The notes under the pieces: model-generated
Told to the model about the DNA's origin: nothing
The model's input: only the letters and a program-made list of their open reading frames with translations
The model's database searches: none
In this document: piece by piece, positions 1-7,529 of the stretch
Numbering within the stretch: the first letter of the stretch is position 1
Layout: each line of letters begins with the position of its first letter
Translations under genes and position numbers: made by a program
IMG/VR virus record: IMGVR_UViG_651053020_000002
DNA length: 14,432 nt
Origin: a virus
Lineage: Duplodnaviria > Heunggongvirae > Uroviricota > Caudoviricetes
Strand: one strand, 5' to 3'

Positions 1-300
1 ATGACAAAAACAGTATCAACCAGTAAAAAACCCCGTAAACAGCATTCGCCTGAATTTCGCAGTGAAGCCCTGAAGCTTGCTGAACGCATCGGTGTTACTG
101 CCGCAGCCCGTGAACTCAGCCTGTATGAATCACAACTCTACAACTGGCGCAGTAAACAGCAAAATCAGCAGACGTCTTCTGAACGTGAACTGGAGATGTC
201 TACCGAGATTGCACGTCTCAAACGCCAGCTGGCAGAACGGGATGAAGAGCTGGCTATCCTCCAAAAGGCCGCGACATACTTCGCGAAGCGCCTGAAATGA
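1..300 (+). CDS. insE: IS3 OrfA transposase subunit (HTH, leucine-zipper-like C-terminus)
   Basis: 99-aa [56 protein letters not shown]..., recognised as IS3 OrfA; stop overlaps orfB start (ATGA). Confidence 0.93.
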
Positions 301-1163
301 AGTATGTCTTTATTGAAAAACATCAGGCTGAGTTCAGCATCAAAGCAATGTGCCGCGTGCTCCGGGTGGCCCGCAGCGGCTGGTATACGTGGTGTCAGCG
401 GCGGACAAGGATAAGCACGCGTCAGCAGTTCCGCCAACACTGCGACAGCGTTGTCCTCGCGGCTTTTACCCGGTCAAAACAGCGTTACGGTGCCCCACGC
501 CTGACGGATGAACTGCGTGCTCAGGGTTACCCCTTTAACGTAAAAACCGTGGCGGCAAGCCTGCGCCGTCAGGGACTGAGGGCAAAGGCCTCCCGGAAGT
601 TCAGCCCGGTCAGCTACCGCGCACACGGCCTGCCTGTGTCAGAAAATCTGTTGGAGCAGGATTTTTACGCCAGTGGCCCGAACCAGAAGTGGGCAGGAGA
701 CATCACGTACTTACGTACAGATGAAGGCTGGCTGTATCTGGCAGTGGTCATTGACCTGTGGTCACGTGCCGTTATTGGCTGGTCAATGTCGCCACGCATG
801 ACGGCGCAACTGGCCTGCGATGCCCTGCAGATGGCGCTGTGGCGGCGTAAGAGGCCCCGGAACGTTATCGTTCACACGGACCGTGGAGGCCAGTACTGTT
901 CAGCAGATTATCAGGCGCAACTGAAGCGGCATAATCTGCGTGGAAGTATGAGCGCAAAAGGTTGCTGCTACGATAATGCCTGCGTGGAAAGCTTCTTTCA
1001 TTCGCTGAAAGTGGAATGTATCCATGGAGAACACTTTATCAGCCGGGAAATAATGCGGGCAACGGTGTTTAATTATATCGAATGTGATTACAATCGGTGG
1101 CGGCGGCACAGTTGGTGTGGCGGCCTCAGTCCGGAACAATTTGAAAACAAGAACCTCGCTTAG
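297..1163 (+). CDS. insF: IS3 OrfB transposase catalytic subunit (DDE/integrase core); normally expressed as an OrfAB fusion by programmed -1 frameshifting
   Basis: 288-aa ORF containing the characteristic ...[34 protein letters not shown]...[10 protein letters not shown]...[11 protein letters not shown]... motifs of IS3-family transposases. Confidence 0.93.
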
Positions 1164-1193
1164 GCCTGTGTCCATATTACGTGGGTAGGATCA
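1155..1193 (+). repeat. IS3 right terminal inverted repeat
   Basis: Sequence ...CTCGCTTAGGCCTGTGTCCATATTACGTGGGTAGGATCA ends in the IS3 terminal TGATC... on the complementary strand. Confidence 0.85.
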
Positions 1194-2821: not shown

Positions 2822-3163
2822 ATGAACCAGTTTTATGTTCACGTTCGTCTATTTGAAGACACAGCCGAACAGACCAAAAAATTTGAAGAATTAATGCTTA
2901 ACTTTCTGTACCAGAAAACAGTTAAAGAGTCTGACGATAGCTGCTGCAGACTGATTCCAGAGGGATATATCCTCAAAAGTACAATGAACTGCCAACAAAT
3001 CCTTGATCAAACATTTTCAATTGCTAACAGTGCCGGTGTTGACGCAAATATATTTGTCTGTAAATTTGAACAAAGCGCATGCTTACTTCCGTCTGCTTCC
3101 TTAGTTGGTAACGATTTCGTTCATTACGATCTTACGCCTAAGCCCATCAAGCTCGATTCTTAA
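2822..3163 (+). CDS. ymfI: Uncharacterised prophage protein (113 aa), opposite in orientation to the flanking leftward genes
   Basis: ORF 2777..3163 with probable start at ATG 2822 (MNQFYVHVRLF...), preceded by GGAAACTT; size and position match my recollection of e14 ymfI; no recognisable domain. Confidence 0.6.
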   Translation: MNQFYVHVRLFEDTAEQTKKFEELMLNFLYQKTVKESDDSCCRLIPEGYILKSTMNCQQILDQTFSIANSAGVDANIFVCKFEQSACLLPSASLVGNDFVHYDLTPKPIKLDS

Positions 3164-3409
3164 AGCCTTAACCATTGTGTCGTGATAAACACGGCTCACC
3201 TTCTCTCCATTGCATGGCAGAGGGGTGAGTGTGTTAGCCATGAAATTCATGAACTCGGTTCGACCAGGGGCTTGCGCCCCGCAAGTCTTTAATGCCTGTT
3301 TTGCTAACAAAATGCGGGCCTCAGTGCCTGCATTTGGCTCTATCTGCTGCAAACGTTTAGCGTCTTCCAGCAACAATGCGATCACATGCTTCAAATTCTG
3401 CTCATTCAT
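3101..3409 (-). CDS. ymfJ: Uncharacterised prophage protein (102 aa)
   Basis: 102-aa minus-strand ORF MNEQNLKHVIALLLEDAKRLQQIEPNAGTEARILLAKQ...; convergent with ymfI and overlapping it by 63 nt at the 3' ends. Confidence 0.6.
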   Translation of the reverse strand: MNEQNLKHVIALLLEDAKRLQQIEPNAGTEARILLAKQALKTCGAQAPGRTEFMNFMANTLTPLPCNGEKVSRVYHDTMVKALRIELDGLRRKIVMNEIVTN

Positions 3410-3511
3410 CTATTCTCTCCACTGAAATCATCCGCTAACGAATCATCCCGGTCTTCGTACGTACCGGGCGGGCTACTTCGTGGGCGTCCTGCCTGTTTGT
3501 TGTTTCTCTTG

Positions 3512-3539
3512 GGTACATTATGTATCTCAAAGGTACATT
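3512..3539. promoter_or_regulatory. OL-like operator candidate: GTAC-cored repeat (GGTACATT at 3512-3519 and 3532-3539; TATGTATctcaaagGTACATT fits GTAY-N7-GTAC)
   Basis: Shares core and spacing with the two palindromes in the cohE-croE intergenic region; lies between the cohE terminator and the ymfJ start. Confidence 0.45.
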
Positions 3540-3546
3540 GTCAAGT

Positions 3547-3571
3547 ATAAAAAAACCTGCCGAAGCAGGTT
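3547..3571 (-). terminator. Rho-independent terminator downstream of cohE (minus strand): 7-bp stem ACCTGC(A)/GCAGGT with a UUCG tetraloop followed by a 7-T run
   Basis: Plus-strand A7 (3549-3555) then stem 3554-3560 / 3565-3571 with loop CGAA; on the minus strand this reads hairpin then TTTTTTT; starts 12 nt after the cohE stop. Confidence 0.65.
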
Positions 3572-3583
3572 CATAAACATTGA

Positions 3584-4258
3584 TTAGGCTTTGATTTTGT
3601 ATCTTCTTGGTTTTCCTGAGAAAATCACAGTACCAATTATAGAGCAATTACCGTTGATCTTAATGTAAGGCTCAGGCCAGTTTGGGTTTAACGCTTTGAG
3701 ATAACGCTGTGTCCCATCTTCTATCAACCTTTTGAAGGTGGTTTCACCTGTATCGTGCATCAATGCAATAACGTCGTCACCGTGGCAGGCAGGTACTTCA
3801 GGATCGACAAAAATCATGTCTCCCGGGCGGTACTCATCAATCATTGAATCACCTATTACCCGCAAGATATAAGTCATTTCCCCACAGGGTACAGGGCAGG
3901 GATACGTTTCTGCTGTGCTCAAATCAACCTCAGAATATCCAACTTCTTTCCATGCTCCGGCCTGTACCCATGATATGACAGGGACTAATGTGATTTGTTT
4001 ATTAGTGATTGAAACATCAGGTTTTTTTGTGATGTTCGTTGTCTGGTGTTCTTGATCGAGCCATCCTACAGGCAGGTCGAAACATTTTTCGATGTGTCGT
4101 GCCATGCTGTCACCGATATTTTTAGTAGCACCATCTCCCATAAACCTGCTGGTCTGGGTTGGCTCGCGATCAATCATAGTGGCAAAGGAAGAATTCCCGC
4201 CAACACCATCTCTCAGTTTTCTGGCGTTAGACCGCCGGATGTCATGGATTGTTTTCAT
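3584..4258 (-). CDS. cohE: Prophage CI-like repressor: N-terminal HTH DNA-binding region and C-terminal LexA/S24-type autopeptidase domain
   Basis: 224-aa ORF; C-terminal part ..ILRVIGDSMIDEYRPGDMIFVDPEVPACHGDDVIALMHDTGETTFKRL.. carries the Ser (GDSM) and Lys of S24 peptidases; divergent from a Cro-like gene. Confidence 0.88.
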   Translation of the reverse strand: MKTIHDIRRSNARKLRDGVGGNSSFATMIDREPTQTSRFMGDGATKNIGDSMARHIEKCFDLPVGWLDQEHQTTNITKKPDVSITNKQITLVPVISWVQAGAWKEVGYSEVDLSTAETYPCPVPCGEMTYILRVIGDSMIDEYRPGDMIFVDPEVPACHGDDVIALMHDTGETTFKRLIEDGTQRYLKALNPNWPEPYIKINGNCSIIGTVIFSGKPRRYKIKA

Positions 4259-4273
4259 AACGAAATTAAAACC

Positions 4274-4294
4274 CTTGTACCGTTAAGGTACAAG
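4274..4294. promoter_or_regulatory. Operator candidate O(R)-a: 21-bp palindrome CTTGTACC-GTTAA-GGTACAAG
   Basis: Arms are exact reverse complements; sits just upstream of a -35-like TTGAAG (4299-4304) in the cohE-croE divergent region. Confidence 0.6.
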
Positions 4295-4322
4295 TATCTT
4301 GAAGGTTCATTTCAATCATGTA

Positions 4323-4345
4323 ATATGTACACCGGAGGTACATAT
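4323..4345. promoter_or_regulatory. Operator candidate O(R)-b: 23-bp palindrome ATATGTAC-ACCGGAG-GTACATAT overlapping the putative croE -10 (TAATAT 4321-4326) and the croE ribosome-binding site
   Basis: Arms are exact reverse complements; GTAC cores are 11 bp apart, the same spacing as in O(R)-a. Confidence 0.6.
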
Positions 4346-4348
4346 TGT

Positions 4349-4549
4349 ATGAAAGCGTATTGGGACTCTTTAACCAAAGAACAGCAGGGCGAGTTGGCCG
4401 GAAAAGTTGGCTCAACACCTGGCTACTTACGGCTGGTTTTCAATGGCTATAAAAAAGCCAGTTTTGTGCTGGCTAAAAAACTTGAGCAATACACATCAGG
4501 TGCAATTACGAAATCTGACTTAAGACCGGATATCTATCCGAAAGATTAG
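4349..4549 (+). CDS. croE: Cro-like small HTH regulator (66 aa)
   Basis: ATG at 4349 preceded by GGAGG (4334-4338); MKAYWDSLTKEQQGELAGKVGSTPGYLRLVFNGYKKASFVLAKKLEQYTSGAITKSDLRPDIYPKD has a Cro/YdaS-like HTH; the upstream part of ORF 4046..4549 overlaps cohE on the opposite strand and is not expected to be coding. Confidence 0.8.
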   Translation: MKAYWDSLTKEQQGELAGKVGSTPGYLRLVFNGYKKASFVLAKKLEQYTSGAITKSDLRPDIYPKD

Positions 4550-4580
4550 CAGAACACTTTCAATTTTTAACCACAGAACG

Positions 4581-5150
4581 ATGAGGCTAATCGTGGGTAA
4601 GCATCACTGGAAAATAGAAAAACAGCCTGAGTGGTACGTGAAAGCTGTCAGAAAAACTATCGCGGCGTTGCCGAGTGGTTACGCTGAAGCGGCTGACTGG
4701 CTCGATGTAACAGAAAACGCTTTATTCAACCGCCTTCGTGCAGATGGCGATCAGATTTTCCCGCTGGGATGGGCAATGGTTTTACAGCGTGCTGGTGGCA
4801 CTCACTTCATTGCTGATGCTGTGGCGCAGTCTGCAAATGGCGTCTTTGTGTCTCTTCCTGACGTCGAGGATGTGGACAACGCCGATATTAACCAGCGTCT
4901 GCTGGAAGTCATTGAACAGATCGGCAGTTATTCAAAACAGATTCGTTCAGCAATCGAAGACGGTGTAGTGGAACCGCATGAGAAGACAGCAATTAACGAC
5001 GAGCTGTATCTCTCAATTTCGAAGCTGCAGGAGCATGCAGCACTTGTCTACAAAATTTTTTGCATTTCAGAAAGTAATGACGCCCGCGAGTGTGCAGCTC
5101 CGGGCGTCGTGGCGTCGATTGCTTCTGGTTGTGGAGAAACTAACGCATGA
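4581..5150 (+). CDS. ymfL: Prophage CII/YdaT-like putative regulator (start uncertain: ATG 4581 or GTG 4593, which has a GAGG 6 nt upstream)
   Basis: 189-aa ORF immediately downstream of the Cro-like gene, the position a CII analogue occupies in lambdoid phages. Confidence 0.7.
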
Positions 5151-7056: not shown

Positions 7057-7529
7057 TGTTCTTTTCGGGATTATTTCAACGAAAAAGTGACGCACCGGTG
7101 ACCACGCCAGCAGAGCTGGCGGATGCCATCGGGCTGTCGTATGACACCTATACCGGAAAGCAGATCAGCAGTCAGCGGGCTATGCGACTGACGGCGGTTT
7201 TTTCCTGCGTCAGAGTGCTGGCAGAGTCGGTCGGGATGTTGCCCTGCAATCTGTATCACCTGAACGGCAGCCTGAAGCAGAGAGCCACCGGCGAACGTCT
7301 GCATAAACTGATCTCCACGCATCCCAATGGCTATATGACGCCGCAGGAGTTCTGGGAGCTGGTGGTCACCTGTCTGTGCCTGAGGGGAAACTTTTACGCC
7401 TACAAAGTGAAAGCATTTGGCGAAGTGGCTGAACTGCTGCCCGTCGATCCCGGCTGTGTGGTATATGCGCTGGGAAGGTGTCAGCGATGGCCTGAAGGTG
7501 ACCGCCGGGAGTGTTATTCAGCGCGATGA
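7056..7529 (+). pseudogene. beeE: Phage portal protein N-terminal fragment (GTG start), cut off by an internal prophage deletion
   Basis: 157-aa ORF with portal-like N-terminal sequence that ends where a baseplate-J-like reading frame takes over (junction about 7440-7480); GGAGG 6 nt upstream of GTG. Confidence 0.7.

Follow-up and report, generated by a model that had tools for sequence, protein, structure and literature searches.

A predicted left operator-promoter beside the repressor gene of the cryptic prophage e14, and the structured leader RNA that follows it

The DNA considered here is a stretch of 14,432 nucleotides from the IMG/VR virus record IMGVR_UViG_651053020_000002, called the window throughout, and its source is the cryptic prophage e14. 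Between positions 3000 and 4600 it is 100% identical to Escherichia coli K-12 MG1655, and from position 1194 on it is colinear with NC_000913.3, in which coordinates equal the window position + 1,198,675. The e14 genes ymfI, ymfJ, ymfK (cohE), ymfT (croE) and ymfL fall within 3000-4600. Our subject is a palindrome in the gap between cohE and ymfJ, here named OL1, which we examine as a candidate left operator of the e14 immunity module; in that module cohE encodes the presumed repressor and croE a Cro-like partner. The module is common among close relatives: it has matches in 1333 of 5426 complete E. coli genomes, about a quarter, and it also occurs in serotype-converting Shigella phages and in Stx2c phages.

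A palindrome inside a predicted leftward promoter

An initial annotation of this DNA had proposed a third operator-like site in the gap, sharing its core spacing and flanks with two palindromes between cohE and croE and giving a lambda-like arrangement of left operator (OL), repressor gene and right operator (OR). Its 29-nt string GGTACATTATGTATCTCAAAGGTACATTG is indeed present, at 3512-3540 (the end coordinate of 3539 that went with it was one base short, a trivial slip), and so is the motif: GTAT-N7-GTAC stands at 3522-3536. The flanks of OL1, TATGTAT...GTACATT, are akin to the TATGTAC...GTACATA of 4324-4344 and the CTTGTAC...GTACAAG of 4274-4294. One part has to be moved, since the GGTAC at 3512-3516, which had been taken as belonging to the site, is better assigned to the conserved half of a second and weaker site, OL2.

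Such matches are rare in the window. The strict form GTAC-N7-GTAC is found twice, against 0.12 expected, and is confined to the two cohE-croE intergenic sites. The relaxed form GTAY-N7-RTAC is found four times, against 0.49 expected, a number that none of 200 shuffles reached; the fourth of these matches, at 7139, has flanks that do not match. We trained a 21-bp weight matrix on only the two cohE-croE intergenic sites of 22 related loci and left the candidate out. The matrix gives 3519-3539 a score of 24.1 bits, close to the 25.4 and 24.8 bits of the training sites in the window, and the next best match in the 14.4 kb scores 10.8. On 200 shuffled windows the best match averages 7.5 bits, with a maximum of 21.3.

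The site also lies where it had been placed, past the cohE terminator and 110 bp upstream of the ymfJ ATG (3409). "Upstream of ymfJ" can be refined, however: the palindrome occupies the spacer between the -35 and -10 hexamers of a predicted leftward promoter. This promoter is the best sigma-70 match between 3000 and 4700, at 11/12 in a scan at the sequence level, and the combination TTGACA-N16-CATAAT occurs once per locus, always at the leftward promoter position. On the minus strand a terminator-like hairpin and T-run come after the cohE stop (3584), with the promoter directly behind them and OL1 8 bp beyond the T-run, and compensating substitutions in the stem keep the hairpin across genera. 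As a speculation, the A/T tract of this terminator, which abuts the -35, could double as an UP-like element. Counting seven bases downstream of the -10 puts the presumed start of the leftward transcript near 3510/3509, at a minus-strand A about 100 nt before the ymfJ ATG.

A protein-guided scan of one genome per species found CohE homologues, 73-100% identical, at 17 loci; the genera include Escherichia, Pseudocitrobacter, Klebsiella, Atlantibacter, Leclercia, Phytobacter, Enterobacter, Pantoea, Trabulsiella, Kluyvera, Limnobaculum, Rahnella and Edwardsiella. Together with the phages SfV and Ayreon and three E. coli prophages these make 22 distinct sequences from more than 14 genera. GTAY-N7-RTAC recurs on both sides of the repressor gene in all 17 scan loci, three times per roughly 6.6 kb: two copies stand at -83 and -33 relative to the repressor ATG, and the third comes shortly after the terminator of the gene. 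A single locus has one copy more. The consensus of the 22 sequences is cTTGACAaTGTACC.....G.TACATAATGTAcc. The block TTGACA-ATGTACC-N5-GRTACAT-AATGTA is kept in the 22 loci with both hexamers and both half-sites invariant, and none of the central five bases of OL1 reaches 80% conservation. To the left of the block the sequence diverges completely and the leftward genes differ among loci. In fact, for many of the 1333 E. coli genomes the similarity to e14 breaks off at window 3434, 3437, 3490 or 3501, and beyond these breakpoints yfdP/Q/R/T-type genes and a different integrase stand in place of ymfJ. The breakpoints fall just left of the site, and thus the site travels with cohE and not with the left-arm genes.

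Could a promoter by itself account for this pattern? If it did, the repeat would be kept by promoter constraint or by recent common descent, and no repressor would be bound. Some of the invariance can be explained in this way: the right half-site overlaps the -10 (the CAT of CATAAT), the -35 abuts the left half-site, and all the loci are relatives. Yet the left half, TGTACC, is invariant at spacer positions outside those read by sigma-70 RNA polymerase, next to five bases that are free to vary, and its invariance therefore goes beyond promoter function alone. A 24-bit match to the OR palindromes also speaks against a promoter without an operator, as do two comparisons across repressor types that are given below.

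OL2 keeps its left half (GGTAC, 3512-3516) and is degenerate in its right half. Its centre lies 20 bp, about two helical turns, from that of OL1, and it covers the -10 and the presumed transcript start. In most loci its position is among the fourth or fifth best matrix matches, and the GTACC after the -10 is conserved. On the other side of cohE, the weak OR2-like site overlaps the -35 of the croE promoter (TTGAAG, 4299-4304; the hexamers were read by eye from the sequence). The cohE mRNA is leaderless, with its 5' end at its ATG (PMC4681348); therefore the palindrome at 4274-4294 lies over the -35 and spacer of the cohE promoter. Taken together, these sites define a predicted operator consensus for CohE, ATGTAY-N7-GTACAT, with five predicted sites, of which two belong to the left side of the gene and three to the right (Table 1).

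Table 1. Features in and around the e14 immunity region (window coordinates, except in the last row, which names segments of the analysis)
Feature	Position	Strand	Basis or remark
OL1, strong operator-like palindrome, TATGTAT-CTCAAAG-GTACATT	3519..3539		Cores GTAT 3522-3525 and GTAC 3533-3536
OL2, weak site, AATGTACC-CAAGA-GAAACAAC (minus strand)	3499..3519		10.4 bits, fifth best in window
-35 hexamer TTGACA of the PL-like leftward promoter	3539..3544	-	Promoter scan; invariant in all 22 loci
-10 hexamer CATAAT, 16-bp spacer	3517..3522	-	Promoter scan and conservation
cohE intrinsic terminator	3546..3572	-	Stem-loop 3572-3553, then T-run abutting the -35
OR3-like palindrome, CTTGTACC-GTTAA-GGTACAAG	4274..4294		Over -35 and spacer of the leaderless cohE promoter
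OR2-like weak site, GTAT-N7-GTTC	4291..4311		10.8 bits, fourth best in window; same position in most loci
OR1-like palindrome, TATGTAC-ACCGGAG-GTACATA	4324..4344		Over -10 (TAATAT 4321-4326) and start of the croE promoter
cohE (ymfK)	3584..4258	-	Annotation; repressor, presumed ligand of the sites
croE (ymfT)	4349..4549	+	Annotation; Cro-like partner, may use the same sites
ymfJ	3101..3409	-	Annotation; first gene of the leftward transcript; late SOS induction
ymfL	4581-5150		Pfam Phage_CP76 match
Conserved structured leader RNA, 66 nt	3437..3502	-	5' end of the leftward transcript; P1 pairs 3496-3501 with 3437-3442; two internal hairpins
Further leader RNA copies	L035 1996-2061; L036 2003-2068; L037 2003-2068; L038-L157		Analysis segments

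Repressor type, induction and the case for a left operator

The site and the type of repressor can be followed together in viral contigs chosen on other grounds. We picked 120 IMG/VR contigs solely for the leader RNA described in the next section, and used the 107 with enough flank. A CohE-type N-terminal domain is encoded in 20 of the 107. In every one of these the promoter is present 45 nt ahead of the leader with the site embedded in it, and two more sites lie 800 and 850 nt upstream. Among the other 87, none has the site, the promoter-site block or the upstream pair, and other palindromes are found close to the -35 instead.

More distant phages allow the repressor and its operators to be compared directly. 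In Pseudomonas phage BR144a (vB_Pae_BR144a) the N-domain of the repressor is 55-59% identical to that of CohE and keeps the stretch REPTQxSR. GTAY-N7-RTAC occurs there three times in 5.2 kb, against 0.04 expected: two copies are at OR, where the operators have the form GTAC-N7-GTAC, and the third lies in TTGACA-ATGTACC-TTTAA-GGTAC-TAGATT, followed by a weak second site, upstream of the next rightward block. (Two extra genes stand between the repressor gene and the left site in BR144a; segment L033, 2417-2482 and 4290-4355.) The repressor of phage CharmingMan is about 35% identical to CohE, and its helix stretch reads REPSYVSR, a change of TQ to SY. GTAC sites are absent from CharmingMan, and TACC-N4-GGTA takes their place, with three copies at OR and two shortly after the repressor terminator (six found against 0.04 expected). 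Its operators differ at both OR and OL, and thus left and right operators change together with the repressor. The layout is also found, built from repeats of their own, in ST64B and ZF40, whose repressors are of other types. A promoter that binds no repressor fits poorly with the parallel change in CharmingMan and with the contigs that have the same downstream leader but other repressors and differ in sequence here, and we hold it to be very improbable.

CohE has the makings of a cleavable repressor. Its residues 93-212 are a Peptidase_S24 domain (Pfam, E 1.5e-26), homologous to the C-terminal domain of lambda cI (E 2e-9). In lambda cI a VQAG-type motif is the cleavage site, and the Ser of GDSM and a downstream Lys form the catalytic dyad. 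VQAG, GDSM and a downstream Lys (FKRL) can all be seen in the CohE sequence. The N-domain has no Pfam match, and a profile of residues 1-90 matches solved DNA-binding domains, namely 5d50 (the repressor of phage SPC32H, E 1.8e-6) and 7nkv (a phage repressor, E 0.002). CroE gives weak matches to YdaS and HTH_3.

The operator might nevertheless be real and belong to CroE, or to another e14 protein, serving to shut off leftward transcription in lytic development and not in the lysogen. Homologues of CroE accompany CohE-type repressors in every locus, including that of the Pseudomonas phage, where the identity is 33%. Lambda Cro also binds OL, and in the known lambdoid switches repressor and Cro share their operators. 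Such sharing is a precedent for CroE at this site, but it also makes CroE probably an addition to CohE rather than an alternative. Moreover, the change from TQ to SY that accompanies the change of operators lies in the recognition helix of a CohE-type protein, and ymfJ and intE stay silent until late in the SOS response and then rise with the genes on the side of the right promoter (PR), which is how a cleavable repressor behaves, and not how Cro does. We consider an operator used by CroE in place of CohE quite improbable.

In a published SOS time course the joint rise of ymfJ and ymfM does not set in until about 50 min, with log2 values of 4.0-4.8, and intE belongs to the same late-induced cluster, whose genes the authors describe as unlike LexA targets (PMC11002266). 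In an independent-component analysis, intE, xisE, ymfH and ymfJ fall into the co-expression module that also holds ymfT, ymfL, ymfM and later genes (PMC12132413, PMC10602906). These data are consistent with a single cleavable repressor holding both arms; neither cohE nor the site was manipulated in any of these studies. On the other hand, lists of the LexA regulon include ymfJ, ymfI and intE (a point taken up in PMC11002266), and ymfJ could be induced through LexA at an SOS box, with the GTAC repeat irrelevant. There is one perfect LexA-type box (CTGT-N8-ACAG), CTGTACCAGAAAACAG at 2906-2921, but it falls within the ymfI coding sequence, some 600 bp away from the leftward promoter, and no LexA-like box with up to one mismatch is found in 3400-3600. 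Induction also comes later than that of LexA targets and is independent of LexA-box strength. The chance that LexA alone explains the behaviour of ymfJ appears practically negligible to us. The box inside ymfI may explain why ymfI and ymfJ are in the LexA-regulon lists.

A defective prophage could also carry an inert relic of a former operator-promoter. In support of decay one may cite the G-to-A change in one core of OL1, an A.C mismatch in helix P1 of the leader RNA, and the interruption of intE by an IS3 element in the window. However, OL1 and the left promoter (PL) are the same, central five bases aside, in SfV, SfIV and Ayreon, all of which form plaques; both hexamers of the promoter are intact; and ymfJ is strongly SOS-inducible in K-12. 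An inert site is extremely improbable in the light of these facts. The insertion itself, an IS3-family element, takes up window 1-1193 in place of NC_000913.3 sequence (orfA 1-300, orfB 297-1163; transpos_IS3, E 3e-101). It has removed the 3' end of intE and left 323 codons, against 1128 bp (375 codons) in NC_000913.3. Because of this truncation, the integrase with which the leftward arm ends is probably inactive in the source of the window.

In the mechanism that we envision, a strong sigma-70 promoter on the minus strand would fire into ymfJ and on towards ymfH, xisE and intE. A CohE dimer, with its helix-turn-helix N-domain and lambda-cI-like S24 C-domain, would bind OL1, at about -9 to -29, and probably also the weaker OL2, helped by OL1, over the -10 and the start. 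CohE on both sites would shut RNA polymerase out of an otherwise very strong promoter. It would likewise sit on three sites over the divergent croE and cohE promoters, strong at 4324-4344, weak at 4291-4311 and strong at 4274-4294, and CroE may use the same operators. During SOS, RecA-stimulated self-cleavage of CohE would derepress both arms together. With the left and right complexes some 755-805 bp apart, lambda-like looping is conceivable. As for read-through to xisE/intE, a scan of the minus strand from 3510 to intE shows no terminator-like site and no other promoter-like site.

Several points weigh against this picture. OL1 of e14 has one non-consensus core, GTAT, and OL2, at 10.4 bits, is a weak site that a few loci have lost. 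Part of the conservation among loci that are related by descent is inheritance and not selection. CohE-type and CroE-type genes co-occur in every locus, BR144a included, and because both always travel together comparison does not separate one from the other as the binder. The proposed read-through to xisE and intE rests on a prediction that covers intrinsic terminators, and another group has predicted a separate promoter for intE-xisE-ymfH. The transcription start site supplement of PMC4681348 has no entry near window 3510, which is unsurprising, since repression of the promoter is to be expected under those culture conditions and a repressed promoter should show no start. In the papers examined we found no binding data for CohE/YmfK, and likewise no footprint, gel shift, chromatin immunoprecipitation or mapped start for this promoter. 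As to the GTAT core, the same variant is found in the viable phages SfV and Ayreon, whose OR1 sites show the same ATAC variant.

With these points counted, the segment 3499-3544 is, judging from its sequence and that of its relatives, very probably the left operator-promoter (OL/PL) of the e14 immunity module. The OL-cI-OR layout of the initial annotation is thereby supported, both by our own comparisons (sequence match, promoter context, conservation pattern, co-inheritance with the repressor type and parallel operator change) and by the co-induction of leftward and rightward genes reported in the literature. The site is a predicted operator-promoter of the well-known lambdoid kind, as a specialist would expect, and thus a piece of ordinary phage wiring. 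It would provide the cis-element for the late SOS switch-on of ymfJ, ymfH, xisE and intE together with the right-arm genes, a pattern that K-12 transcriptome studies have met repeatedly and that has till now been attributed to LexA or "YmfT". If true, the prediction extends to the induction of the Shigella serotype-converting phages and Stx2c phages that carry the module.

A structured leader at the predicted start of the leftward transcript

The leftward transcript would open with a conserved structured RNA (Table 1), which begins about 8 nt past the presumed start in e14, ST64B and ZF40. Its structure was worked out from 43 distinct copies in genomes and viral contigs. The closing helix P1 takes the forms GCGAA/UUCGC, CCACC/GGUGG, GUCAUC/GAUGAC, GCAAA/UUUGC and others. 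It encloses two hairpins, one small and invariant (GGC-AGGAC-GCC) and one of 5 bp that covaries and has a 12-nt loop of conserved sequence; the joining strands are invariant. Pairing is found in 94.5% of cells, against 23-44% in slid controls, with compensatory changes in 10 of the 14 pairs. The covariation score is 0.507, against 0.128 in shuffles, and 0 of 500 shuffles reach it. The covariance model scores the e14 leader, mismatch in P1 included, at 78 bits. A first model (R1), which had taken a CGAA/UUCG helix from RNAalifold, turned out wrong in wider sampling, as the 3' strand pairs with 5' GCGAA; model R2 replaces it.

The leader follows PL-type promoters of several unrelated immunity types (CohE-type, ST64B, SfII, ZF40 and others), in at least 120 viral contigs. 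The sequences after it are unrelated among loci, and it has no tie to a particular downstream gene. Our leading guess is that it acts in cis on the early-left transcript.

The putL element of phage HK022 offers the nearest comparison that we drew. Both RNAs are structured, about 65-70 nt long and start within a few bases of the PL start, and both belong to lambdoid phages reported to lack N. They differ in architecture: the leader has a closing helix around two hairpins, whereas HK022 has two side-by-side stem-loops. Measured by the HK022 arrangement, two adjacent put-like stem-loops and a putR copy, the leader does not qualify as a put element. Covariance models and sequence search gave no significant match in HK022, and each locus has one copy of the leader, with none on the PR side. 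A search of Rfam over the whole window at the gathering threshold, and over 3380-3600 at E up to 10, returned only weak terminator-like matches and no family for the leader. The put region of HK022 itself gives nothing in Rfam, so this negative says little about put.

On a more ambitious reading, the leader would be a cis-acting RNA of a new class, one that modifies either the transcript or RNA polymerase, for example a factor-independent processive antiterminator in lambdoid phages without N. We regard this as unlikely. If true, CohE leaving OL would have two effects at once, in that transcription would begin and would be armed for read-through to xis/int. In many relatives, e14 not among them, the leader is followed by a GC-rich hairpin and then GCTCTTTAACAA (L001, about 3930-3985 on the minus strand; L004, about 3815-3860; and many viral contigs). 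We take GCTCTTTAACAA to be identical to the boxA antitermination sequence of rrn operons, and the order of hairpin and then boxA to be that of rrn leaders.

Comparison with known immunity regions

The Shigella phages SfV and SfIV carry the same module, OL1/PL included, and their cI and Cro are 97-100% identical to the e14 proteins. In GenBank, the entry for SfV has a terminator after cI and a "putative operator region" between cI and cro and nowhere else; the record of phage Ayreon annotates a promoter at the left position and not the operator. The left operator is not named in PMC11002266, PMC12132413, PMC10602906 or PMC4681348. While it is unmarked in all the records and papers examined, the original analyses of SfV and e14 (Allison 2002; Mehta 2004) fell outside this coverage, so an earlier description is possible. 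According to the SfIV authors, SfII, SfV and SfIV have no N, cII or cIII. YmfL matches Pfam Phage_CP76, the "phage regulatory protein CII" family (E 9e-13), and the SfII record names its homologue cII, though the SfIV paper describes these phages as lacking cII.

The predicted e14 region shares several traits with lambda OL/PL. In both, the left operators are of the same sequence type as OR and lie across the core of an early promoter that is directed leftward, away from the repressor gene. The repressors have an S24/cI C-domain with the VQAG cleavage motif, the left arm leads towards xis and int, and derepression of both arms on SOS, as in lambda, is predicted for e14. The details are different. 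Where lambda has three left sites, e14 would have one strong and one weak site, and the strong one fills the -35/-10 spacer. The half-site is ATGTAC, with an 11-bp core spacing. No rexA/rexB separates OL from the repressor gene, the -35 follows straight on the cohE terminator, and the distance from OL to OR given above compares with about 2.3 kb in lambda. An N gene and nutL are not recognised, and a different conserved RNA structure comes after the promoter; on reading YmfJ and the 68-aa product of the first leftward open reading frame of strain D8, we saw no arginine-rich N-like motif.

With immC of the P22/434 type, the predicted e14 region has in common the compact order of OL, repressor gene and OR, palindromic operators for a helix-turn-helix dimer, and a cI-like cleavable repressor. 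In fact, the C-domain of P22 C2 is about 40% identical to CohE residues 93-212. The N-terminal DNA-binding domain of CohE, in contrast, is unrelated at the Pfam level (it has no Pfam match), the operator sequence is another one, and the first leftward gene is not an N homologue. On our analysis, then, the e14 site would work like lambda OL/PL, and its compact layout is closer to that of the P22/434 type.

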